A stretch of DNA of 43,165 nt from a virus (taxonomy: Duplodnaviria; Caudoviricetes), in the IMG/VR virus record IMGVR_UViG_3300008255_000207, positions 1-43,165 of that record, one strand, 5' to 3'. Within the stretch, counting starts at the first letter, position 1. The number at the start of each line of letters is the position of its first letter. Shown in pieces: positions 467 through 43,165 of this stretch. A model generated the notes under the pieces. That model was not told where the DNA came from and made no database searches. It saw nothing but the letters and a program-made list of their open reading frames with translations. The position numbers and the translations under genes are program-made.

Positions 467-545
467 AAGCCAGGTGTTTTGTGAACCTTGAAAATTGAAT
501 AGCCCCCTGGTGAAGGGAATAGTAACCAGGGGGAGGCCGTGAGGC
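457..545 (+). ncRNA. Structured element copy E4: hairpin, boxA-like, hairpin with conserved loop, GNRA hairpin
   Basis: GTGAACCTTGAAAATTG at 481-497. Stem CCCCCTGGT/ACCAGGGGG (503-533) with loop GAAGGGAATAGTA, a variant of TGAATGGGGCATAGTAG. GCC-GTGA-GGC at 536-545. Confidence 0.65.
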
Positions 546-1031
546 TTAAATTTCTAAGAAGCCAAAGCAGCTCTCAGCAGGGATTGTGATTGGATCTGTG
601 AGCGAAAAAGGAAGGTCGATTCCTTCTGATTTCAAGTGCTCACAAATTTTCATCATGTCCCTATCGTGAGACAGTAGGTGGGTGGCCTTTTCAAGCTGTG
701 CCTGAGCGACAATCTTCAGATCATCAGCAATACAGGCTTTGTCTTTCTTGCTGCGCTGATAGTAAATCGAGGCTAATTTGCCCGCCGTTTTAGCATGGTG
801 AATCTCCAAAGCCAAAACCTCAATGTCTCTCGGAATAACATCGGGGTTCCCTTTGACGGCAAATTCAGCCACACAAACGACTGAAGTGAGCATGGGGACG
901 TTGTTTTCTTTGAGCCACTGGTAATACTTGAGGGCTGAAGGGTATTCTGGCGCAGAAGGCTTGGCCAAGTAGATTAAAAAGTTGGTGTCAAAAAAGACCG
1001 TGTACTCTGGTTTTTGAGGCGATTTACTCAC
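546..1031 (-). CDS. PIN-domain (VapC-like) ribonuclease
   Basis: FFDTNFLI, VAEF, DDLKIVAQA and LLSHD acidic PIN motifs. GTG start at 1031 overlaps the upstream stop (GTGA). Confidence 0.85.
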   Translation of the reverse strand: MSKSPQKPEYTVFFDTNFLIYLAKPSAPEYPSALKYYQWLKENNVPMLTSVVCVAEFAVKGNPDVIPRDIEVLALEIHHAKTAGKLASIYYQRSKKDKACIADDLKIVAQAQLEKATHLLSHDRDMMKICEHLKSEGIDLPFSLTDPITIPAESCFGFLEI

Positions 1032-1759
1032 ACAGCCCCCCGAAGAGAGCGAACCCATTCAACAGGGTCTACAACCTGATCAAAGGCATCTGTTTCAGGC
1101 GGGATTGTTTCAGACTTATCGAGATTGTAAGGTAAAAACTCGATAAACTTGGCGTTCCTTACTTCTCCGGTATGTAGATGCTGCTCTACGGAAGCAACAA
1201 GACCTATTTTTTTATAGAGCAAATTGGTCTTAACTGATGCAAGCACCTTGTAAGAGACCGATACAATCACTTTACCCTTGTTTCGGGTTTCTAAATGGAT
1301 ATTTGGGTCTTTGCCACCAGCGGCATAGACAATACCATAAAGGTAGACCCTGGTTTTGAACCAGAAATTGTTTTCAGGCTGAAGCAATGTGTTTTTATCC
1401 AAGAAAAAGGGCTTCTCTGGGTGTCCCTGAGAAGTGTTGATCAGCAATGGCCGATGCAAATCCGCTGTTTTTTCTTTGAGTTTCAAGAGCGCATTTTTGA
1501 AACGGGCCGGAACAATATCCAGATTCCGACTGGTGTTGACCGCATTCAGGGTATCTTGCATGTTTTTAACTGCTGCTGAATCATCGGTTTTGAGATCCAG
1601 CAAAACACAGCAATCTTTGATGTCCAGGCTGACCTTTTGCCGCTTCGCACTTTTATTGGGGTACAAAAGAGCATATGCCTGCTCGATCATCTCAAGCAGG
1701 TCTGGGATATCTAAATCCCCAGGCTTCATATCGTCGATGCGAAGTTGCAGCCAATCCAT
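1028..1759 (-). CDS. Hypothetical protein translationally coupled to the PIN gene (partner/antitoxin candidate)
   Basis: Long AT-rich ORF. Likely ATG at 1759 (the ORF track starts at 1807). GTGA overlap with the PIN gene. Confidence 0.7.
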   Translation of the reverse strand: MDWLQLRIDDMKPGDLDIPDLLEMIEQAYALLYPNKSAKRQKVSLDIKDCCVLLDLKTDDSAAVKNMQDTLNAVNTSRNLDIVPARFKNALLKLKEKTADLHRPLLINTSQGHPEKPFFLDKNTLLQPENNFWFKTRVYLYGIVYAAGGKDPNIHLETRNKGKVIVSVSYKVLASVKTNLLYKKIGLVASVEQHLHTGEVRNAKFIEFLPYNLDKSETIPPETDAFDQVVDPVEWVRSLRGAV

Positions 1760-1825
1760 TTTACGCCCCAATCCGGTTTGCTGTAACACCCATTCTAGCT
1801 GATTCACAGGGGATTATCAACATAC

Positions 1826-1915
1826 ACCCCCCAAGGGGCCACGCGGGACTACTATGCCCCATTCATTGCCTGCTGATTGTCAATGTTCACTGCCCTCCGT
1901 GTTTCACGGTGGCAG
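1826..1915 (-). ncRNA. Structured element copy E1 (chimeric)
   Basis: 1826-1866 is identical to 2674-2714 (41 bp). 1848-1874 is identical to 40837-40863 (27 bp). boxA-like GTGAACATTGACAATCAG on - (1890-1873), preceded by a GAAA-loop hairpin. Confidence 0.7.
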
Positions 1916-1921
1916 GCCACA

Positions 1922-1960
1922 TGCTACGATGGAGGCCAGTAAGCCCTGATAACTGAATAG
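1922..1960 (+). promoter_or_regulatory. Extended -10 promoter followed by a boxA-like motif
   Basis: TGcTACGAT at 1922-1930. AGCCCTGATAACTGAATAG at 1942-1960, nearly identical to 2756-2774. Confidence 0.5.
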
Positions 1961-1970
1961 AGGTGTAGGT

Positions 1971-2501
1971 GTGGAATTATACTTTTTCTTGGCTTCATGC
2001 TTTTTAGCGATCAACCTTTGGATTGCCTACAGCATTGCTCGCTTTGCTCAGAACAAAGTGCCTGATGCTCGCCAAATTATTTATGCCAAAGAGATTGCCG
2101 ATAGAAGGTTAAAAGCTTACGATACCGCGTTAAAACAAGTATCAAGCCTTTTTGCTTCTGAAACATCTACTGAAAGTGGTGTTTCCCGTAGAAACCCGAC
2201 TGAAGATGAAGCCCGCTTTATTGATTATCGGGCCGAGCTTTACAACTTGGCCGAACATATCCCCTGGTTTAGCCCTCGTTCCCTTGAGCTTCACGATCAG
2301 CATCGTAAAGCAGTGGAGAAACTATTGGCTCTTTGGGCTGAACAATCGCTTGAGAGGCCTGCCCATACGGATGAAGGAAAAGAAGTACGAAAGACGGCCC
2401 TTGCTTTGATGCAGTCTCTTGTGAGTGATTATCACCGAATGCCAGCTCTTGACGCCTTTGACGCAGAGCGTGCGCGGAATCCGAAAAATAAGAATCATTG
2501 A
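1971..2501 (+). CDS. Membrane-anchored hypothetical protein (N-terminal TM helix, RLKAY motif); paralogue of 40957-41634
   Basis: Hydrophobic N-terminus. IADRRLKAYDTALKQVSSLF aligns with IIGKRLKAYESIEKLMGLF. Confidence 0.75.
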   Translation: MELYFFLASCFLAINLWIAYSIARFAQNKVPDARQIIYAKEIADRRLKAYDTALKQVSSLFASETSTESGVSRRNPTEDEARFIDYRAELYNLAEHIPWFSPRSLELHDQHRKAVEKLLALWAEQSLERPAHTDEGKEVRKTALALMQSLVSDYHRMPALDAFDAERARNPKNKNH

Positions 2502-2619
2502 TATTCGCAAGAATCTCTTCTTGTGATTCCTTTACGAGCCGAGCAGACTCCCTGTCACTGTACTTAATCAAGGCGAAAATAGCGGTCAAAGTAGCTATAA
2601 CAGAAATTAAAGCAAGCAT
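2269..2619 (-). CDS. Small TM protein, possibly a remnant; 3' part overlaps 1971-2501 antisense
   Basis: Strong SD (AGAGGAGG) before ATG 2619. TM segment LALISVIATLTAIFALI. Confidence 0.4.
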   Translation of the reverse strand: MLALISVIATLTAIFALIKYSDRESARLVKESQEEILANINDSYFSDSAHALRQRRQELAFGDNHSQETASKQGPSFVLLFLHPYGQASQAIVQPKEPIVSPLLYDADREAQGNEG

Positions 2620-2673
2620 GTTCCCTCCTCTGCTTCCAATGTTTTGCCATAAAACAGACAATCAGAAAAACCA

Positions 2674-2751
2674 ACCCCCCAAGGGGCCACGCGGGACTAC
2701 TATGCCCCATTCATCCCGCGCTAATTTTCAAGGTTCACCGGCCCGAAGGCC
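2674..2751 (-). ncRNA. Structured element copy E2
   Basis: On -: C(UUCG)G hairpin, GTGAACCTTGAAAATTAG, stem CGCGGGA/TCCCGCG around the 17-nt loop, CCCC/GGGG hairpin, T-rich tract. Confidence 0.7.
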
Positions 2752-2782
2752 AATGAGCCCTGACAACTGAATAGGGGGGAAT

Positions 2783-3229
2783 CTAAGGTGCTTTGTGTAA
2801 GGCCTTGAGTTTACCTTCGAGGTGAAGGATTTTAAACCAGGAGCGAATAATCTCCTGAATCATTTCCAAGCCCAAGTCTACTTCCTCTCGGCCAATTTGG
2901 TCAAAGGTTTTCAGTTCAACATGAGCCGCATCATTGCCCAGATATTTGAGCTGCATCATGGCATCAACAAAACGCTGGTGGACAGAGGTTTTGTTAGGTA
3001 AATCAAGAATCTTGTGGTGCAGATCGCGACCTTCAGCTCCGACCTCTGCGCAAATCTCTTCGAGCGTTCGGCGAATCATAATGGCCGAAGCTCTGTAACA
3101 ACCAGCGCCAAAGCACTTTAATGCTTCGGTAAGCAATTGAGTAATCAAAGGTGGTAATCCCTCCGTTTCTATCTCTGGCTCAATATCAGGAAAAATCTCA
3201 AGAACCTCAAGAAAGGCGCGCCCAGTCCC
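2783..3229 (-). pseudogene. DUF4145 (HEPN-like) domain gene, apparently 5'-truncated; may still be translated from TTG 3148
   Basis: EALKCFGAGCYRASAIMIRRTLEE and LKYLGNDAAH motifs. The frame stays open and family-like upstream of the TTG (EVLEIFPDIEPEIETEGLPP) up to a TAG inside the boxA-like motif, with no ATG. Confidence 0.65.
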
Positions 3230-3265
3230 CTATTCAGTTGTCAAGGTTCACCGGCCCTCGCGGGC
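3227..3265 (-). promoter_or_regulatory. Partial element E5: GNRA hairpin plus boxA-like motif
   Basis: On -: GCCC-GCGA-GGGC then CGGTGAACCTTGACAACTGAATAG, immediately downstream of the XRE gene. Confidence 0.6.
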
Positions 3266-3299: not shown

Positions 3300-3599
3300 T
3301 TATTGTTTGCCTTTGAACAATATTGACGTTTCATCATCAATACTGCCCCAGGCAATGACAAAGAACACATCGAGAGCGCGTCCAAGCTTTTGCAAGACTT
3401 CAGCGGTTGGGCTGGTAATATCTTGCTCCAGCTTTGCAATCATGCTGACGCTCACCTCTGATTTCTCGGCAAGAGCCTTTTGTGAGAGGTGCTTTTCTTC
3501 TCGTGTGACCTTGAGGCCTTTAGCTGAATAGACACGTAAATCCATGTCTTCAGCATACACAGTTTTTATTGGTTCAGATGTGACAAGTGTAGATAACAT
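3300..3599 (-). CDS. XRE-family HTH repressor (XRE-1)
   Basis: LKVTREEKHLSQKALAEKSEVSVSMIAKLEQDITSPTAEVLQKLGRAL is a classic HTH_3 pattern. Start uncertain (3617, 3599 or 3545). Confidence 0.85.
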   Translation of the reverse strand: MLSTLVTSEPIKTVYAEDMDLRVYSAKGLKVTREEKHLSQKALAEKSEVSVSMIAKLEQDITSPTAEVLQKLGRALDVFFVIAWGSIDDETSILFKGKQ

Positions 3600-3600
3600 A

Positions 3601-3702
3601 TCAATATATTGACTCATTTTTATGATCTATGTCAAGCAATAATGGTAAATTAATTATCAATATATTGATTGACAAAATAAATTAGGTGTGTCAATATATT
3701 GA
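3601..3702. promoter_or_regulatory. Divergent promoters with three operator palindromes TCAATATATTGA
   Basis: Perfect palindromes at 3601-3612, 3657-3668 and 3691-3702. TTGACA on + (3669-3674) and on - (3635-3630), each with its -10 region covered by an operator. Confidence 0.8.
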
Positions 3703-3731
3703 TACAAGAACATGAATTGAAAGGAATCAAA

Positions 3732-3935
3732 ATGCCCCAAACTAGCACGGCCCCTGCGGCCAAAGTTTACCCAGACTGGATGATTGACAGTGTCCAACAG
3801 TACAAGACCGCCCTCACCGGCGGAGCAAAGGCCGACGATGGCCGGTACTGCCTGTGCAGAGAGTTCGACCGTTATGGCGAATGTGCCCACACAGATTTCA
3901 TTAAAAAAAACCAATTGGAGGAATCACATGTTTAA
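3732..3935 (+). CDS. Small SWIM zinc-finger protein
   Basis: SD GAAAGGA. YCLCREFDRYGECAH motif. Confidence 0.7.
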   Translation: MPQTSTAPAAKVYPDWMIDSVQQYKTALTGGAKADDGRYCLCREFDRYGECAHTDFIKKNQLEESHV

Positions 3936-4809
3936 ACCCACGCTCGAAGAACTCGAAGAAATCCTGGAGCTGCATAAAAAGTGGCTGAATGGTGACGTAG
4001 GAGGTGTAAGAGCAAGCCTCGACGGGGCAAGCCTCGAAGGGGCAAGCCTCGTCGGGGCAAACCTCGAAGGGGCAAGCCTCGACGGGGCAAGCCTCGTCCG
4101 GGCAAACCTCGACGGGGCAAGACTCATCCGGGCAAGCCTCGACGGGGCAAGACTCATCCGGGCAAACCTCGAAGGGGCAAGCCTCGAAGGGGCAATCCTC
4201 GACGGGGCAAGACTCGACGGGGCAAACCTCGAAGGGGCAAACCTCGTCGGGGCAAACCTCGTCCGGGCAAGCCTCGACGGGGCAAGCCTCGACGGGGCAA
4301 GCCTCGACGGGGCAAGCCTCATCCGGGCAAACCTCGAAGGGGCAAGCCTCGAAGGGGCAAGCCTCGTCCGGGCAAGCCTCGAAGGGGCAAACCTCGTCGG
4401 GGCAAACCTCGTCCGGGCAAGCCTCGTCGGGGCAAACCTCGAAGGGGCAAGCCTCGCAGCGGCCTACTTGCAACCCATTAAAGAAGATATAAAAAATATC
4501 TTAAATTCAGCCCCCGCCGAAGTTCAGGGCCTTCTTGATTTGCTCAATGCGGGGAAAATTGAAGGCCGCGTATACGAGGGTGAGTGTGCCTGCTTAGTCG
4601 GCTCTATTGCGAAAATCAGAGGTGTTGAATTAGATGCTTTGGGAATCAGAATTGATAGCGATAGTCCTGCTGAATGCTGGTTTCTCGCGATTAATAAGGG
4701 TGCTACACCTGAAAACAACCCAGTTGCCGCAATCACAAAGGAGTGGATTGAAGAATGGTTGTCTGCTCACCCCCAGCCAGCTACCGAGGAGGAGCTTCAT
4801 GTCAACTGA
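3928..4809 (+). CDS. Pentapeptide-repeat protein
   Basis: SD GGAGG before ATG 3928. ELEEILELHKKWL cap followed by ~30 A(S/N/R)L(D/E/V/I)(G/R) repeats. Confidence 0.9.
   Translation: MFKPTLEELEEILELHKKWLNGDVGGVRASLDGASLEGASLVGANLEGASLDGASLVRANLDGARLIRASLDGARLIRANLEGASLEGAILDGARLDGANLEGANLVGANLVRASLDGASLDGASLDGASLIRANLEGASLEGASLVRASLEGANLVGANLVRASLVGANLEGASLAAAYLQPIKEDIKNILNSAPAEVQGLLDLLNAGKIEGRVYEGECACLVGSIAKIRGVELDALGIRIDSDSPAECWFLAINKGATPENNPVAAITKEWIEEWLSAHPQPATEEELHVN
4012..4455 (+). repeat. 15-bp coding tandem repeat, ~30 units
   Basis: Unit GCAA(G/A)CCTCG(A/T)(C/A)(G/C)GG, highly homogeneous at DNA level. Confidence 0.95.
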
Positions 4810-4996: not shown

Positions 4997-5183
4997 TATC
5001 GTCATCCTGATTCTGATTCTCATCTCATTGCTTAAGCTGGCCCAGATTCAGCAGCAGCTCAATTTGCCCTGGATGGCCACACCTGGCGGTAATATGTTGC
5101 CCCCTGGCTTGGCTTTTGAGCGTATGAAATTGGTCATTCAGCTCAAGAATATGCTGGCATTGGAGGGGTACAAATGGCAGTAA
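4989..5183 (+). CDS. Small membrane protein
   Basis: SD GAGGAGG. Hydrophobic N-terminus. Overlaps both neighbours. Confidence 0.6.
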   Translation: MSDIVILILILISLLKLAQIQQQLNLPWMATPGGNMLPPGLAFERMKLVIQLKNMLALEGYKWQ

Positions 5184-5791
5184 CACGCACAGAACTACAA
5201 GGGTTAAAGCAAGAAATGCCCTATAAGGTGCGCAAAGGACCAAAGGGATCAATCCTGGCGTATATTGACGCACGCCAAGCCATGGACTTGCTCGATGAAG
5301 TCTGTGGCCCTGAAAACTGGCAATGCGACTATCGCCAAGTTAAGAACGTCGTTTATTGCGGCGTGGGGATCTTCACCGAATCCGGTTGGGTTTGGAAGTG
5401 GGATGCCGGAGATGAAAGTAATATTGATGCCGAAAAAGGCGAAGCGAGCGACGCATTTAAGCGGGCCGCTGTGCGTTGGGGTGTCGGTAGATTTCTCTAT
5501 AGCTTGGGTGATGTCAAAAAACAGCAGTACAAAGTCCCTGCTCCTGCTGCGCCAAAGCCAGCGCCCAAGCCTGCCCCTAAACCTGCGCTCACGGATACCC
5601 GTCCCGAAGCCCCTCTCACGGATGCCGGTCGCGATAATCTTACCCGTATCTGCAAAGAAACGGGTTGGACTGGCGACCACTTCAAAGAGTTGCTGCGTGA
5701 CATGGATCTGACCTGGAAAGGCCTCAGCAATGGCGATGCTGACGCTCTGATTAACTATTTTGTGCATGAGCCAAAACTGCCCCCGATTTAA
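5174..5791 (+). CDS. Rad52/Rad22-family (Sak-like) single-strand annealing protein
   Basis: LAYIDARQAMDLLDEVCGPENWQ and KGEASDAFKRAAVRWGVGRFLY signatures, Pro/Ala linker. Confidence 0.9.
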   Translation: MAVTRTELQGLKQEMPYKVRKGPKGSILAYIDARQAMDLLDEVCGPENWQCDYRQVKNVVYCGVGIFTESGWVWKWDAGDESNIDAEKGEASDAFKRAAVRWGVGRFLYSLGDVKKQQYKVPAPAAPKPAPKPAPKPALTDTRPEAPLTDAGRDNLTRICKETGWTGDHFKELLRDMDLTWKGLSNGDADALINYFVHEPKLPPI

Positions 5792-5841: not shown

Positions 5842-6132
5842 ATGTGTAAGAAAACAATTTGCTTTATTGAGGTCGGAAAAGGCGCAAACTTCGTTTTGGC
5901 GCTTTGCGCTCACGGCTTTGCTTTTGTGCCCCAAAATGCTGCCGCACAAAAGATTCTCAGCGACGAAAACGAGAATTTAGAACAGGTGCTTAAATCTGGC
6001 CAACAGCCCCGCGTTTTTGGCCTGGATTTTTCCAAAATTGCCGGGAATATACCTCAAGGAACACCAGTGTCCGAGGGCACTGTTCAGATGCTCTCTGAAG
6101 TTCAAGTTCATCACAGAAAAGCGGAGGAATAG
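5842..6132 (+). CDS. Hypothetical protein
   Basis: SD GAGGT, operon position. Confidence 0.65.
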   Translation: MCKKTICFIEVGKGANFVLALCAHGFAFVPQNAAAQKILSDENENLEQVLKSGQQPRVFGLDFSKIAGNIPQGTPVSEGTVQMLSEVQVHHRKAEE

Positions 6133-7378: not shown

Positions 7379-7492
7379 ATGGCCAATCAAAACAAACCGA
7401 TTCAACTTTCAGAGCAAGAAATCAGCGAGCGCGAGCGCCGGATTGCTGAGATCTTAGTTCAAGTGAAACGGCGGCTAGAATCGAAAAAATGA
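7379..7492 (+). CDS. 37-aa protein coupled to the integrase (directionality factor candidate)
   Basis: Not in the ORF track. MANQNKPIQLSEQEISERERRIAEILVQVKRRLESKK. ATGA overlap with the integrase start. Confidence 0.5.
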   Translation: MANQNKPIQLSEQEISERERRIAEILVQVKRRLESKK

Positions 7493-9438
7493 CTCCTCTA
7501 TTGCCACCTGGCACAAGAATAGGGCTTTTTATCCGCGTTTCGACGGATGATCAAGTCAGGAACGAGTCTCCCGAGGTTCATCTACAGCGCGGTCAAGAGT
7601 ACACCGATGGACACGGCTGGATCGTTGTTGCCGTCTATCAGCTGGACGGTGTGAGCGGTGCCTCAATGATGAATGAACCCGACACCAAACGGATGTGGCG
7701 TGACGTTGAATCAGGTGTTATTGATGCCTTGCTTTTTTCTGCTGTGGCTCGCATGGGGCGCAATATGTTTGATCTCTTTAAAATAGAGAGACATTTGCGA
7801 GCTCATGATAAATGGTTGGTAGATACGCGGCGTGGAGTGATTGATACTGATACCCAAGAGGGATTGGATTATTTTTTTCACTCTGCGCACAGAGCGCATT
7901 CTGAGAGGCTTGAACTCTCAGCAAGAGTTAAAGCTGGCCTAATTACACGGGCAAAGATGGGGCAATTCGTGGCTTCATTGCCACCTTACGGTTATAAAAA
8001 GGTCCCAGCAGCTCAGACTGGCAAAGCCAAAAAGCTGGAAATTGATCCCATTGAAGGCCCAATCAGAGTACTCATGTACGATCTCTACTTGCAGCATCGC
8101 AAATTCATGATCGTTGCTGCAGAATTAAACCGGCGCGGGTACCGAAACAGAAACGGGAAACCGTTCAGCCTTCATAATGTCAGAGCTATATTACTGGATT
8201 CGTCTGCAATGGGTGTGTATTACTCAAACCGCACAGCGCACAACAATCCAACTGGCAAAACAGAGGCAGACAGGATCCCTATCCCCGTCCCTCAACTTAT
8301 AGACGGTGAAAAATGGGAGCGCGTTAAGTCTTTGATTGAGAGCAACCTTCCAAAGGTTCGCAGAGCTATCTACCCTTACAGCGGACTTCTGAACTGCATC
8401 TGTGGCCCCAAAATGTACACAAACAGCTCAATGAATAACTCAAAGTCTCAGTACCGATATCCACCACGCTACTCCTGTCGCCAATGTGGGAATAGAATCC
8501 GTATGAATCTGCTTGATGAAGCCATTGGAGTTCTATTCACTGGCTTTCTGCTTGATGGGGTTCCTGATGGCGTTGAAGTCGAACTCAGTAAAACTGAACA
8601 ACAACTCCTGGCTCTAAAATCTGAGCTAAAAAATGTTATTGCTGGCAAAAATCGCTGGGCTGATGCTTACCAGGCCGGTGCTCTGGAGCTTGACGACTTC
8701 AAAAAGTATCACTCCCCTTTAATTGAGCGTGAGCGTGAATTAACGACCGAAATCAGTTGCCTTGAGCAGGGTCTCAGAACTGATAAAGACCAGTTGCAGG
8801 CCCAAGAACAGGCTGTCCAGGTCTTTCAGTCGGCTTCATGGTCAGACCTGACCACAGAGGAAAAACACGCATTGCTGCGTGAGTTTGTGCAATCTATCAT
8901 TTTGGGCCCAGAGAATATAACCATCAAACTCCTCTATACCCCAGCAGCCTTACAGGTCTCTGAGCCTGGATTGGCCAAACTACACAAAATTATTGCCCCC
9001 CGGCCAGATCACCTTGTCATGCCTAATGATCAGTATGCCTGGTCATGGCTTTTGCACAGAGAGCGCAAAGCAAGAGGTGAAGCCACCCGCAAAGTTTCGA
9101 CTATTCTCGGTATTCATGAGACCACGATCAATCACTGGGAAAAAATGTCTCGCCCCCCAGGCCCCACACATATTGCTAAAATAATGGAGTATCTCGGGTA
9201 TATACCTTGGGTCAGAACGCCTTATGCTCAGGACACATTGGGGGCCGCATTTAGGACTATCCGTGAGGCACTTGGCGTCACACAGCTCGAACTCAGCAAT
9301 AAGCTCAGAATATCTCAGGCAGCGATCAGCAAAGTTGAGCGGGGTGAAGTGGTCAGCGTCAAGTTATTAAACAGGATTGAAATGGCTTTAAAAGTGCCTG
9401 TAAGGCAGATATACAGAGCTTATCAGCCTGAAAATTAA
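7489..9438 (+). CDS. Large serine recombinase (integrase) with two C-terminal XRE-HTH domains
   Basis: IRVSTDDQ catalytic Ser motif, PPYGY, IVAAELNRRGYRNRNGKPFS recombinase domain, CICG...CRQC Zn ribbon, coiled coil, then two HTH_3-like segments. Confidence 0.92.
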   Translation: MTPLLPPGTRIGLFIRVSTDDQVRNESPEVHLQRGQEYTDGHGWIVVAVYQLDGVSGASMMNEPDTKRMWRDVESGVIDALLFSAVARMGRNMFDLFKIERHLRAHDKWLVDTRRGVIDTDTQEGLDYFFHSAHRAHSERLELSARVKAGLITRAKMGQFVASLPPYGYKKVPAAQTGKAKKLEIDPIEGPIRVLMYDLYLQHRKFMIVAAELNRRGYRNRNGKPFSLHNVRAILLDSSAMGVYYSNRTAHNNPTGKTEADRIPIPVPQLIDGEKWERVKSLIESNLPKVRRAIYPYSGLLNCICGPKMYTNSSMNNSKSQYRYPPRYSCRQCGNRIRMNLLDEAIGVLFTGFLLDGVPDGVEVELSKTEQQLLALKSELKNVIAGKNRWADAYQAGALELDDFKKYHSPLIERERELTTEISCLEQGLRTDKDQLQAQEQAVQVFQSASWSDLTTEEKHALLREFVQSIILGPENITIKLLYTPAALQVSEPGLAKLHKIIAPRPDHLVMPNDQYAWSWLLHRERKARGEATRKVSTILGIHETTINHWEKMSRPPGPTHIAKIMEYLGYIPWVRTPYAQDTLGAAFRTIREALGVTQLELSNKLRISQAAISKVERGEVVSVKLLNRIEMALKVPVRQIYRAYQPEN

Positions 9439-9497
9439 TATCAGTCGTAAAGGGTTAACTATGGCACCTTGGGAATAACCCTTTACGACTGATATTA
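9436..9497. repeat. Perfect 22-bp inverted repeat with 18-bp spacer; candidate attP or bidirectional terminator
   Basis: TAATATCAGTCGTAAAGGGTTA (9436-9457) and TAACCCTTTACGACTGATATTA (9476-9497), between convergent integrase and lysis genes. Confidence 0.75.
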
Positions 9498-23056: not shown

Positions 23057-23359
23057 TTATCTAAAAAGGTCTGAGTGTGATCCCATTCTCACATAAGTGA
23101 GCTCTGAATCCGGGGGTTCAGTTCCCTTCTTTTTAGGCGGATGATGCAAATAATAAATCACAAGTCGATCAGGTCCAAAGTGAAACTCACGATGTCTCTT
23201 CCAGTCACCATTTAAAGGATGATCCTTGAATTCTTTAGGAAGCGACATTCCGGTACTAAGATAAGCAGCGGCTTCTTTATACCGCTCAAAATCCCAGTTT
23301 CGGGCTTTACACCGTTCAATATCTTTTTCGAACTGATTGGTAAAAGCAATCTTTATCAT
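23057..23359 (-). CDS. yafQ: YafQ-family mRNA interferase toxin
   Basis: FTNQFEKD, KDHPLNGDWKRHREFH, DRLVIY and RMGSHSDLF. ATG at 23359. Confidence 0.9.
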   Translation of the reverse strand: MIKIAFTNQFEKDIERCKARNWDFERYKEAAAYLSTGMSLPKEFKDHPLNGDWKRHREFHFGPDRLVIYYLHHPPKKKGTEPPDSELTYVRMGSHSDLFR

Positions 23360-23360
23360 G

Positions 23361-23627
23361 TTAAATTCCGAGAGCTTTAAACGCCTCTTCATGCGAATCA
23401 AAAGATTCGAGGTTCTGTCTTTTTTCAGCATCCCGCATAGCTTCTAAAGTTATAGCATTTGGAATTCTGATGTCGAACGGAATGCCTCTCAACATTCTGA
23501 TTTGTTGATAATACATCCGAATCGCCTCTGATGCGCTAAGCCCTAATTCCTTTAATATTTTTTCTGCTTCGTGTTTTAGCTCAGGTTCAACTCGAACACG
23601 AATCGTTTCCGTTGCGGTATTAGTCAT
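23361..23627 (-). CDS. dinJ: RelB/DinJ-family antitoxin
   Basis: IRVRVEPELKHEAEKILKELGLSASEAIRMY...GIPF...PNAITLEAM. Confidence 0.92.
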   Translation of the reverse strand: MTNTATETIRVRVEPELKHEAEKILKELGLSASEAIRMYYQQIRMLRGIPFDIRIPNAITLEAMRDAEKRQNLESFDSHEEAFKALGI

Positions 23628-40193: not shown

Positions 40194-40485
40194 AATCCTT
40201 ACCTCAGATTGTTATTTTTTGTCGAAGCCCGAAGGCCGGGCCAGGGAGCTACCCTGACCCTCAATCATGAGGTACCAGCCGTGGTAGACTGATTTTGTTA
40301 GTTTGGGGTACTACCACGTTTTGTTGGTACCTCTTTTTTTTTGCCCGCTGCTTCGGGGCTGATCACAGGGGGCATGCTATGACCAGGCCGAAAGCAGAAA
40401 ACAAACCGCCGGACCGAATCCCAGCGGGCATACTACTCATATATCACCTAAAAACGCGACAGAAACATCCTTTCTTTTTATTAAG

Positions 40486-40551
40486 TGGCTAAGACGGGAA
40501 TTGAACCCGTCACTTAGGCGAGTGAATCCTAAGCATGGCCAGATTTAGCCA
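40486..40551 (-). ncRNA. tRNA-like RNA lacking a D arm
   Basis: Acceptor-like stem TGGCTAA/TTAGCCA, stem CTTAGG/CCTAAG with 9-nt loop ATTCACTCG, T arm GACGGG-TTCAATT-CCCGTC. No CCA. Confidence 0.6.
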
Positions 40552-40580
40552 AGAAAAAGCCCAGCCATTGCTGGCCGGGC
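40552..40580 (-). terminator. Intrinsic terminator immediately 5' of the tRNA-like RNA
   Basis: GCCCGGCCA-GCAA-TGGCTGGGC followed by TTTTTCTT. Confidence 0.7.
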
Positions 40581-40672
40581 CTGAATTTAATAGTGGAACC
40601 AGACTAAATCTACTCTGCGTTTAACCGCAGCAGGGAGAGCAGGAAACGGTAAACCTGCGCTCGCTGGTGGGG

Positions 40673-40786
40673 TTATCGTGTATCAAATACAGAGTGATTT
40701 ACCGATGCAAGTGATGAATCAAGCGAATTGGTATTAAGCATTCCTTGCGAACCGCCGTAAAGCTCAATCTGTTTTTCATGAGCCAC
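40673..40786 (-). pseudogene. Fragment resembling the N-terminus of a Doc/Fic-family toxin
   Basis: VAHEKQIELYGGSQGMLNTNSLDSSLASV resembles the Doc pattern H..qI..yGG..G.rd...LeSAl. Stops before the Fic catalytic motif. Confidence 0.5.
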
Positions 40787-40813: not shown

Positions 40814-40896
40814 CCCGCCAAAGCGGGGCGCAGGCAACTACTATGCCCCATTCATTGCCTGCTAATTTTCAAGGTTCACTCGCTGCAAAATGCAGC
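40814..40896 (-). ncRNA. Structured element copy E3
   Basis: On -: GCTGCA/TGCAGC hairpin, GTGAACCTTGAAAATTAG, stem GCAGGCAA/TTGCCTGC around the same 17-nt loop, CCCGC/GCGGG hairpin. Confidence 0.7.
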
Positions 40897-40956: not shown

Positions 40957-41634
40957 ATGCTTAAACTGATTAGAGTAATAAGCATGAACAAAGAGCAATT
41001 CGAAATTTTAATTGACCTACTCAAAAGCCTGTATCCTGTTTTTCTGGCAATAATGAGCATTCTTTTGACTGCGTTGCTTGGCTTCTTTACCAAACGAATT
41101 GACTTTGCCAATGATTATTTCAAGCTCATTATTGGCAAAAGACTGAAAGCTTACGAATCGATTGAAAAGCTTATGGGTTTGTTTCTGATTGAGTCCAGAA
41201 ATCCTGACGGAAAGGTTGTGAATGCATTTCTGCTCCCTGATTTTATTGATCAGGAAACCGGTGAAAGACTTCCTCTTGTGAATTTGCTCGCAAAATTGAA
41301 CATAGTCTTTTACCAGAACGAACAGTGGCTGAGCAAGGAGTTTGGAGAAATGCTTAAAGTGTTTCTCCAGCTCTGCTCCGATATTGACGGTCCGGAAATC
41401 CTTCATTCCAACCTGCAACACAACAGGCTTTTTGAAGATTGCCTGAAAAGAGCGATAGAGCGGAGAGAAGACCTTGATAAAAGCGCCAAATCTGTAATGA
41501 AGCAATTCCATAGGGACTTTGCTAGTATTCACGATGTTACGGGGTTCTTGAAAGAAAAGAATGAAAATGTTCATATTATGCTCAGAATAGTGAAATTACT
41601 GGAAGCAATAAGACGACTATGGCGAAGCCCATAA
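40957..41634 (+). CDS. Membrane-anchored hypothetical protein (RLKAY motif), moron-like
   Basis: TM segment VFLAIMSILLTALLGFF. AT-rich. Own extended -10 TGcTATACT at 40921-40929. Start 40957 or 40984. Confidence 0.75.
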   Translation: MLKLIRVISMNKEQFEILIDLLKSLYPVFLAIMSILLTALLGFFTKRIDFANDYFKLIIGKRLKAYESIEKLMGLFLIESRNPDGKVVNAFLLPDFIDQETGERLPLVNLLAKLNIVFYQNEQWLSKEFGEMLKVFLQLCSDIDGPEILHSNLQHNRLFEDCLKRAIERREDLDKSAKSVMKQFHRDFASIHDVTGFLKEKNENVHIMLRIVKLLEAIRRLWRSP

Positions 41635-42270: not shown

Positions 42271-42297
42271 AAAAATAGCCTCAATATTTATTGAGGC
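42271..42297 (-). terminator. Terminator after XRE-2
   Basis: GCCTCAATA/TATTGAGGC followed by TATTTTT. Two further hairpins at 42317-42369. Confidence 0.6.
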
Positions 42298-42370
42298 CAC
42301 ATGTTACGATAGGAACACCAGGTTGGTCCCTGGTGATTGTTATCTGCCCTCAGCTTTCGAGCTGGGGGCT

Positions 42371-42661
42371 TTATTCTTCCCAATCTGCATAAATATACAA
42401 GCCAAAAAACCGCCCAACTTTACCGAGTGTTTCTATGCCTGGGTTTTTTACGATCCCAGACTCCAGACGCTTGATTGTATTGATATCAATACCAGAAGCT
42501 TTTGAGAATGCATCTTGGGTTCTATACCCATTCTCAGCTCTCAACTTCTTTATCAGGTCTGGTGAGTACGGTTCAAATCTTGGCATTGTAGTACGAAACA
42601 CTCCAAAGCGCGTAATAGCGCGCACCTTCTTGTTATCCATTCTACAACTTGTTTCTTGCAC
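42371..42661 (-). CDS. XRE-family HTH repressor (XRE-2)
   Basis: IKKLRAENGYRTQDAFSKASGIDINTIKRLESGIVKNPGIETLGKV. Start 42661, 42640 or 42586. Confidence 0.85.
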   Translation of the reverse strand: MQETSCRMDNKKVRAITRFGVFRTTMPRFEPYSPDLIKKLRAENGYRTQDAFSKASGIDINTIKRLESGIVKNPGIETLGKVGRFFGLYIYADWEE

Positions 42662-42685
42662 TGTCTTGTGACCTCGTTAACATCG

Positions 42686-42761
42686 ATTTTATTCTATTGA
42701 ACTTAAATTGTCAATAAAATCTTTATTGGCTATTGACTAGTTTACTGTAATAAACTAGAAT
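42686..42761. promoter_or_regulatory. Back-to-back sigma70-type promoters with an operator palindrome
   Basis: - strand TTGACA(42714-42709)-17-TAAAAT. + strand TTGACT(42733-42738)-17-TAGAAT. Palindrome CTAGTTTA-N6-TAAACTAG at 42737-42758. Confidence 0.8.
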
Positions 42762-42815
42762 AATTTTCAGGATAACAAAAACACCCGGCCTCACCAGCCA
42801 GAAAGAAGGACCAAC

Positions 42816-43165
42816 ATGAAAACCTACGAACAGCGTGTTGAAGACGACCTTGCAGAGATTGAATCTGCACTCAAAACGCTCAAAACAAAGAAACAGGAGC
42901 AGACGCTTATCAAAGTGGCGCAAGTCACCCCTGAGCGCATTGCTAAATACCACACCCAAATAAGTCACTGCGATTGCCAAGATTACCAGCGCGGAGGCTC
43001 TTACAGCTCTCCCGATCACCGCGATTGCAAACACACAATCAAGCTTCAAGGCGAAGTGCATTTTTACCAAACCCGTCAGCTTAAAATGGGTATTTGGATC
43101 TGCAATTGCATCGAATGGGATGAAAGTGGCGAAGGGAATCAAGGTTCCTGTGTTCACACCAAAGC
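42816..43165 (+). CDS. N-terminal part of a tandem SWIM zinc-finger protein; continues across the circular junction to 466 (271 aa in total)
   Basis: Not in the ORF track. SD GAAGGA precedes ATG 42816. Translation MKTYEQRVEDD...HCDCQDYQRGGSYSSPDHRDCKH...ICNCIEWDESGEGNQGSCVHTK contains two CxC..CxH SWIM motifs. The frame is open to the window end and in frame with 2..466. Confidence 0.75.
   Translation, partial: MKTYEQRVEDDLAEIESALKTLKTKKQEQTLIKVAQVTPERIAKYHTQISHCDCQDYQRGGSYSSPDHRDCKHTIKLQGEVHFYQTRQLKMGIWICNCIEWDESGEGNQGSCVHTK

Follow-up and report, generated by a model that had tools for sequence, protein, structure and literature searches.

Two kinds of described systems come close to the repeats discussed here. 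On the RNA side, the lambda nut site, made of boxA, a spacer and boxB, acts with the N protein and Nus factors (PMC2724277; PMC8632103), and boxA is reported to recruit NusB-S10 in both rrn and nut complexes (PMC8632103; PMC2724277), while it can also repress or promote termination (PMC5725501; 10.64898/2026.07.09.737519). The presence of boxA in CRISPR leaders has already been described as well (10.64898/2026.07.09.737519), and phage HK022 carries the put RNA (PMC8632103). On the recombination side, the PeSL repeats that border non-essential genes in T4-type phages are presented as places where recombination shuffles cassettes, with small circles as a conceivable by-product (PMC2839356), and recombination at short repeats is also reported for the "boundary sequences" (PMC3029335). 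Recombination at short regulatory repeats is, in other words, a known route to phage mosaicism.

The stretch of DNA analysed here, called the window (43,165 nt, IMG/VR record IMGVR_UViG_3300008255_000207), belongs to a temperate phage, whose genes include those for a tape measure protein, a terminase, a serine integrase and an annealase of the Rad52 family. A previous sequence-only reading had pointed out three repeats in it, E1 to E3, which share a 19-bp core, and had proposed that E1 is a chimera of the two other types. The repeats are more than bare recombination sites: they are structured elements led by a boxA and read on the minus strand for E1 to E3, and what is conserved in the core is an RNA loop, carried by the strand opposite to the one considered in that reading. 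Besides, the inventory of three was incomplete, as a fourth copy (E0) and a lone boxA are also present. The elements and their parts are as follows:

1826 to 1890, minus strand: hybrid element E1, defined by exact identity extension, stem comparison and fold
1890-1877, minus strand: boxA of E1
1873-1865, minus strand: 5' arm of E1, of the type found in E3 and in the related locus L196
1864-1850, minus strand: loop of E1
1849-1841, minus strand: 3' arm of E1, of the E2 type, with an E2-type tail hairpin down to 1826
1848 to 1866, no strand: 19-bp core, the interval containing the E1 crossover
2674 to 2738, minus strand: intact element E2, with boxA at 2738-2725, a 9-bp stem and 15-nt loop at 2721-2689, a tail hairpin, then a U-rich run
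40815 to 40879, minus strand: intact element E3, upstream in transcript sense of a structured leader and of the replication and late genes
481 to 547, plus strand: E0, the fourth copy, in opposite orientation, with boxA at 481-494, a stem at 503-533 with a shorter variant loop, and a GNRA tail hairpin
3230 to 3251, minus strand: lone boxA, 49 nt after an HTH gene, with chimeric flanks
1933 to 1963, plus strand: copy 1 of a boxA-variant repeat, directly behind a promoter-like motif; a similar variant occupies the boxA slot of L025
2747 to 2777, plus strand: copy 2 of the boxA-variant repeat

In transcript order, the element consists of a variable hairpin, a fixed 14-nt motif (boxA), a spacer of 4-9 nt in most copies, and a stem-loop with a 9-bp stem and a loop of 13-15 nt, after which a short tetraloop hairpin ends it. 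Sixteen distinct copies were gathered from this phage and from related phages and prophages, namely E0-E3, L002, three in L192, L194, L195, L196, L023, L025b, two in L036, and L236; the hairpin of L023 recurs in L025, L034 and L054 and was counted once, while L034b, which has another loop, the half-element L065 and contig fragments were left out. In the 11 distinct rows that remain once E1 is set aside, 93.9% of the cells are paired and 8 of the 9 stem pairs have changed on both sides, compared to 33-53% in slid controls and to 500 shuffles of which none scored as high, this count not being a probability since the rows are relatives and the events not independent. L236, which was found after the model had been built, brings a new stem with 8 of 9 pairs. 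Apart from E1, the weakest stems are those of L025b (6/9 pairs, decayed) and L194 (7/9), neither of which shows a split between arm types. The strand is further indicated by the UUCG, GAAA, GUGA and UUUG tetraloops and by the G-U pairs, which all fall on the boxA strand. Within the loop, GAA and UAGUA are invariant in 12 of 12 aligned loops and stand opposite each other on top of the stem; variant loops occur in E0, L036a and L025b, and one contig of run X4 appears to replace the GAA side by letters pairing with AGUA (with a loose end at 511), as fits a helix-like loop motif. The half-element (L065/L193; 10329-10345 in G001:C55) has the loop, the 3' arm and the tail without boxA or 5' arm, and is located where a small accessory-like gene ends.

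No match to the element was found in Rfam 15 (E<=1 for the window, E<=0.5 for five relatives), nor to E2 by BLASTN among 50,697 INPHARED phages at E<=1, and the E0-type pattern had 0 matches in viral sequences. In the same line, no description of it is given in the titles and opening lines of abstracts among the papers listed for Sericytochromatia and phages, although motif tables in the supplements could hold one. Several side interpretations were dropped: the short "MGHSS" ORFs that begin within the loop were regarded as fortuitous, a pseudoknot between the loop and an upstream boxA-variant antisense fits E1 and E2 only, and the loop is unlike the host CRISPR repeat. One CRISPR spacer (L049, 2502-2536) has 21 nt in common with the L192/L008-type element, the loop among them, which may be due to chance.

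The assignment of the fixed motif to boxA rests on its occurrence in the host and on published letters that agree with it. In three host genomes, its four exact matches (4/4) are located in a 16S-23S spacer behind two tRNAs (L071), in two CRISPR leaders (L069, L070) and in a prophage element (L072), and the spacer boxA/D4 published for cyanobacteria has identical letters (PMC8461337). The stretch of the lone boxA (3251-3230) differs from the spacer site of genome G001 at 3 of 22 letters. The host boxA sites, which lack the conserved two-hairpin unit, reach only 16-19 bits with the element model, and Rho and NusB are above cut-offs in 5/5 candidate host genomes. L069 and L070 are the leaders of distinct CRISPR arrays in Ca. 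Sericytochromatia genomes, in which Rho is also encoded. An interpretation of boxA as a -35 promoter box was discarded, as no -10 was seen at the right spacing by inspection. Outside this group of phages, the boxA+D4 pattern is found at no fewer than 119 viral loci (at least 119), of which none has the loop hairpin among the matches listed; it is common in unrelated phage contigs (L073-L191), by eye often ahead of tRNA-like or other structured RNAs, and in L191 it is followed by what we take to be a hammerhead-like sequence.

Judging from the prophages related to the window, the host is likely Ca. Sericytochromatia: the prophage L192 of genome G002 is collinear with the window, with 79% over a 4-kb block and 66-82% in other long blocks. 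The exact loop accompanied by boxA and stem was found in 3 of 15 genome matches, all titled Ca. Sericytochromatia or Ca. Blackallbacteria. Exact-loop matches devoid of boxA and stem were put down to chance (1/2 viral, 12/15 genome and 35/43 metagenome loci, and 29/31 viral 15-mer matches); eight metagenome loci were kept, three of them being the window itself. When 47 genomes of the Sericytochromatia class were searched with the element covariance model, seven gave matches and five were accepted (G001, G002, G003, G043, G044), the two others being dropped by eye. Of the individual model matches, L202 and L203 were dropped by eye and L067 because it has no stem. Searches for related loci with ORF 152-466 and the terminase retrieved no relative in viral contigs.

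As regards placement, an HTH gene precedes boxA by 17-102 nt in nine loci (L002, L034 twice, L036, L192, L194, L196, L236, and the window at 3251), with the reservation that the L236 gene is a putative HTH gene and that one of the L034 genes is a weak HTH match. In the three E0-type copies, boxA comes 15-21 nt after an early gene, E0 itself beginning 15 nt past the stop of ORF 152-466, and in E3, L195 and site 1 of L192 cargo genes are located between the HTH gene and the element. The genes that follow the element vary from phage to phage: Panacea, Fic/Doc, PIN, DUF433, DUF4145, DUF2335 and unknown membrane-anchored ORFs. In the window, the surrounding features are:

546 to 1807, minus strand: two accessory ORFs on the downstream side of E1, one unknown (1028-1807) and one with a PIN domain (546-1058)
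1915 to 1930, plus strand: conserved promoter-like motif, probably of extended -10 type, ahead of the cargo gene; second copy at 42295-42310
1971 to 2501, plus strand: ORF for a cargo protein of 176 aa that has a hydrophobic N-terminus and fits no family; it is flanked by E1 and E2
2783 to 3229, minus strand: DUF4145 gene truncated at its 5' end, with the boxA variant on one side and the lone boxA on the other
3300 to 3617, minus strand: XRE-type HTH gene 2, followed downstream by the lone boxA, E2 and E1
5174 to 5791, plus strand: Rad52/Rad22-family single-strand annealing protein, candidate recombinase (PF04098, E 1.9e-14; phrog_1097)
7489 to 9438, plus strand: large serine integrase
9436-9497: perfect inverted repeat (22 bp, spacer of 18 nt) that directly follows the serine integrase, putatively attP-like or a terminator
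40957 to 41634, plus strand: cargo ORF beside E3, no family above cut-off
42371 to 42661, minus strand: XRE-type HTH gene 1, upstream of E3

The two cargo ORFs are weakly similar to each other (30% over 64 aa, E 1e-4), and the PF04098 match bears out the Rad52-type annealase that had been proposed from the letters. In L192, the DUF4145 cassette occupies the other accessory site (site 1), with a complete gene and a promoter-like motif of its own; in the window, it occupies site 2 in truncated form. With PADLOC, DUF4145 had no more than weak PD-T7-4 matches, and one L036 protein had a partial NsnC match. A module of divergent HTH and SWIM-like genes is present twice in the window (42371-43165 together with 1-466, and 3300-3935), twice in L192, and once each in the stretches of L194, L195 and L196 that were examined; the SWIM-like gene is a constant neighbour of the element (score 0.89), which gives no more than a lead. 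The window also contains a 15-bp tandem array that codes for a pentapeptide-type repeat protein (3920-4570) and, inside the tail module, a RelE-like toxin gene with a small partner (23057-23627).

Taken together, these data lead us to consider, with moderate confidence, that E1 is a loop-crossover hybrid of two boxA-hairpin types and that the element is a nut-like RNA site directed against Rho termination. The nut-like function, which is reasonably probable in view of the motifs and their placement, would proceed as follows: boxA would load host NusB-S10, with NusA and NusG, and the loop would be read by a conserved partner, be it RNA polymerase, a Nus factor or a phage protein. The early transcript, being protected from Rho, could then cross untranslated antisense accessory DNA; the one carrying E3 would reach the replication and late genes, and the one carrying E0 the annealase and integrase genes. 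No N-like antiterminator is annotated among the 53 ORFs with PHROGs, N proteins being small and fast to diverge. A clear U-run follows the tail hairpin in few copies only (E2, L192b), and such terminator-like tails suggest that some copies may terminate rather than allow read-through.

The region downstream of E3 holds other conserved blocks. A structured leader, in which three hairpins can be told apart (one of 10 bp with a GCCCC loop, one long, and one with UUCG), precedes a 60-aa ORF and the replication gene in the window (40200-40420, minus strand), L192 (5790-6130), L002 (240-500) and L194 (230-520). The window copy has no Rfam match, and the likeness to C4 antisense RNA that we presumed for it got no support from Rfam either. 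In the L192 prophage of G002, the long hairpin of the leader carries a 55-bp insert (~5910-5965) resembling a CRISPR repeat of the same genome (L070) and bordered by a short duplication, which is possibly a solitary repeat or the outcome of ectopic Cas1-Cas2 integration. A second conserved non-coding block is found at 40520-40720 (minus strand) and in five relatives; it is followed by a tRNA gene in four relatives and by none in the window.

The same leader bears on a less probable reading, which would leave the loop crossover of E1 unchanged, and according to which the element would be a small stable RNA or an attenuator, boxA assisting its folding and the loop acting in trans as an antisense, a decoy or a ligand sensor. 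Two adjacent hairpins could indeed shield a short RNA, the terminator-like tails and the boxA seen by eye ahead of tRNA-like and structured RNAs in unrelated contigs would agree with it, and the loop of one leader hairpin (40386-40359, minus strand) is complementary to the element loop over 6-7 nt in four phages. However, this hairpin was not found in three other long element-bearing loci (L195, L196, L206), as a result of which it was rejected as a kissing partner of the loop, and complementarity elsewhere in the window (8-9 nt) does not exceed what chance would give. In addition, a loop that is invariant across divergent phages would fit a fixed host partner, as in the nut-like function, better than an antisense pair of the immunity type.

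Turning to E1, exact extension confirms that it equals E2 over 41 bp (1826-1866 / 2674-2714) and E3 over 27 bp (1848-1874 / 40837-40863), and that the two stretches overlap only in the 19-bp core, which E2 and E3 share at that place. The core occurs three times with 0 mismatches where 0.02 occurrences are expected, and 0 of 100 shuffles gave three. The mismatch of the stem arms was also correctly seen, E1 keeping 5 of 9 pairs compared to 9/9 in E2 and E3; accordingly with isolated 33-mers, the stem folds in E2 (-15.5 kcal/mol) and E3 (-13.6 kcal/mol) and not in E1, and the covariance model gives 51.2 bits to E1 against 73-74 to E2 and E3, both of which belong to its training set. The 5' arm of E1 is 9/9 identical to those of E3 and L196, and its 3' arm 9/9 identical to that of E2. 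Mixed arms of two stem types are found in E1 only (1/16 distinct copies), the other 15 copies offering no sign that this arm combination is a conserved variant. Both parental types occur elsewhere, the E3 stem being intact in L196 and an E2-like stretch with three differences being present in X3/X4 contigs, which supports the proposal that E1 is a footprint of recombination with its crossover within the core. As far as letters can tell, the covarying stem pins this crossover to within 19 bp.

The parentage has to be qualified: the E2 and E3 types stand as sources of E1, whereas present-day E3 is doubtful as the partner. E1 equals L196 over 36 nt, compared to 27 for E3, and this match includes boxA letters at which E1 and E3 differ, so that present-day E3 is probably not the partner; the E3-type element of a different phage, or else an older state, is more likely. 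E3 for its part equals L196 over 51 nt, the stretches of E1 and E3 against L196 overlapping by 27 nt, and the upstream hairpin of E1 resembles those of L023 and L034. Deletions between elements had been predicted to restore a perfect hairpin, and this holds to the extent that an E3-to-E1 join would equal L196, a natural element, over 60 nt. The distance involved had been set at 4176 bp across the junction. The record is linear without terminal repeat, and its two ends are ~29 bp apart, within one ORF, in the collinear prophage L192; the window is therefore probably a nearly complete permuted genome, and adding these ~29 bp brings the E3-E1 distance to ~4205 bp. This 4.2-kb segment is not a recent insertion, since L192 has the two-module layout of the window. 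No deletion junction was found in the Logan contigs examined, which cannot prove absence; the E1-E2 deletion would be invisible in k=31 contigs because the repeat measures 41 bp. Among relatives, L192 does lack the cargo gene and E2, but its junction lies in the boxA-variant repeat and not in the core.

The simplest history would be that a 1.4-kb cassette array (1848-3256) entered a site with a single element, by one crossover in the loop and one in boxA. E1 was probably tolerated, since intact E2 is upstream on the same strand and E1 may be redundant. The order of events and the donor are not fixed by the data, as gene conversion from E2 would yield an identical E1. Such a conversion or template switching within the genome, copying the 3' arm and tail of E2 onto an E3-type element 848 bp away, is an unlikely origin: the perfect 41-bp identity of E1 and E2 does stop at the end of the tail hairpin, as it would predict, but the boxA junction at 3238-3256 and the relocated DUF4145 cassette are left unexplained. 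It would, moreover, still be a homology-driven exchange in the loop.

The core is not a privileged site. The same chimeric pattern is observed at boxA and at the boxA-variant repeat, so that the loop appears as one of several short homologies rather than as a dedicated site. At 3238-3256, the window is chimeric at boxA: on its HTH side, it corresponds to one L192 site with 97% over 35 nt, and on its downstream side to a second L192 site with 97% over 37 nt. In L192, what flanks window 1933-1963 on the left is joined to what flanks window 2747-2777 on the right, and X2/X4 contigs change flanks at 481, the first base of boxA. E2 and E3 share a second 19-bp identity at boxA, and for 14 elements the longest identity lies in the loop in 74 of 91 pairs and in boxA in 6 of 91. 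With the longest identities there, homology-driven exchange would fall in the loop or boxA without any site-specific enzyme, and we hold it to be probable, with good confidence, that the exchange is homology-driven rather than site-specific. As boxA and the loop stay constant whereas the stems diverge, these fixed parts would provide the longest identities between copies and would collect crossovers, probably through the Rad52-family annealase and between co-resident phages; by means of them, the annealase likely exchanges cassettes of toxin-antitoxin and DUF4145 genes. Rad52-like enzymes prefer homologies that are short and diverged. The 19-bp core is shorter than the 23-27 bp given for efficient pairing by Red-beta (PMC3945230), and it is part of a 43-bp stretch over which E2 and L196 are 84% identical. 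Crossovers at boxA, where the stem stays whole, were seen repeatedly, and a crossover in the loop, where it is broken, once in 16 copies, maybe for the very reason that loop crossovers break the stem.

It is, by comparison, improbable that the core is a dedicated site-specific site, whether integron attC-like, of HUH type or a secondary site of the serine integrase, with E1 as its product. The phage does encode a serine integrase, the core is invariant inside a hairpin of variable stem that adjoins exchangeable genes, and the half-element L065/L193, outside any prophage, breaks at the stem/loop border. Nevertheless, a system cutting in the loop should make many mixed arms and not one in 16 copies, the junctions in boxA and its variant leave no single fixed crossover motif, and loop variants exist (E0, L036a, L025b). 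The 53 ORFs of the phage include no tyrosine recombinase or HUH protein, the serine integrase being the only candidate, and the inverted repeat at 9436-9497 has no motif in common with the core.

E1 is very likely a real recombinant. In run X1, positions 1837-2703 are covered by a single Logan contig with a mean depth of 7.3 and 0 differences to the window, including 11 nt of the E2-type arm, the core and the whole E3-type side of E1; E3 is inside a single unbroken X1 contig. Mis-assembly, which had been named as a threat to the chimera, is therefore unlikely, a false joining of E1 and E3 being impossible in a k=31 graph since their identity is only 27 bp. X1 is the probable source run of the window, X2-X4 do not cover E1, and the data come from one sample, so that this support is not independent. 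That E1 would be an artefact or an independently decayed stem is hardly credible: although it appears in the probable source run only and a decayed copy exists (L025b, 6/9 pairs), the X1 contig spans the junction with an identity below k, and random decay does not give two arms each 9/9 identical to a different known stem type.

Going one step further, it is conceivable, if doubtful at this stage, that the element is an N-free antiterminator RNA of Sericytochromatia phages, in which the host rRNA boxA would be combined with a sarcin-ricin-type hairpin read by host RNA polymerase, by Nus factors or by the SWIM zinc-finger protein encoded next to it. Early transcripts would run through toxin-antitoxin or defence-like islands, and the fixed pieces would be the crossover points of these islands. 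If so, one element would both license and shuffle the accessory genome.

Compared to the lambda nut site (PMC2724277; PMC8632103), the element likewise has boxA 5' of a conserved-loop hairpin with a spacer of mostly 4-9 nt, and likewise follows closely, in each of the two early directions, the first gene of a temperate phage that is regulatory or early. It differs in that its boxA is of the host rrn type, a second hairpin follows, its copies flank exchangeable cassettes, its 13-15-nt loop with GAA/AGUA is unlike a short boxB with a GNRA-like fold, and no N homolog was recognised. With the boxA of rrn operons and CRISPR leaders, as presented in PMC8632103, PMC8461337 and 10.64898/2026.07.09.737519, it shares the boxA itself, hosts that encode Rho and NusB, and a boxB-boxA order as in rrn, the variable hairpin being usually directly upstream of boxA; unlike these host sites, it adds a conserved two-hairpin unit and repeats around phage accessory loci. 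HK022 put resembles it in its size (~65 nt), its two adjacent hairpins, and its position in the early transcript of a temperate phage without recognised N, whereas the sequences are unlike and the part of PMC8632103 that deals with put describes it without boxA; the boxA of the element suggests that host factors take part, unlike in the factor-independent put mode. If the element antiterminates without N, its mode would thus lie between those of nut and put.

The GAA and AGUA strands facing each other also recall the bulged-G (sarcin-ricin / loop E) motif AGUA/GAA (PMC1865062), a fold that the element would adopt judging from its letters. Compared to the ribosomal bulged-G loop, the strand order of the element is reversed.

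As with the PeSL cassettes (PMC2839356) and the "boundary sequences" (PMC3029335), recombinant junctions are located at short repeats on the borders of variable genes. PeSLs are nonetheless described as promoter-terminator units of virulent myoviruses, whereas the element is a boxA-led structured RNA of a temperate phage; it lacks the unit of sigma70 promoter and terminator, no -10 being seen by inspection at a 17-nt spacing behind the TTGACA/TTGAAA of boxA, and the mismatched arms of E1 record a crossover to within 19 bp. Since recombination at repeats was already known, the chimera alone is a clean example and not a new mechanism, which sets loop crossovers, rare and breaking the stem, against boxA crossovers, repeated and keeping it. 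The element itself is a structured RNA family absent from Rfam 15, built on the host rRNA boxA and found in phages of a non-photosynthetic sister group of Cyanobacteria. E1 is, in this sense, a real chimera produced by a known process, and it marks a new variety of boxA-based phage RNA element.
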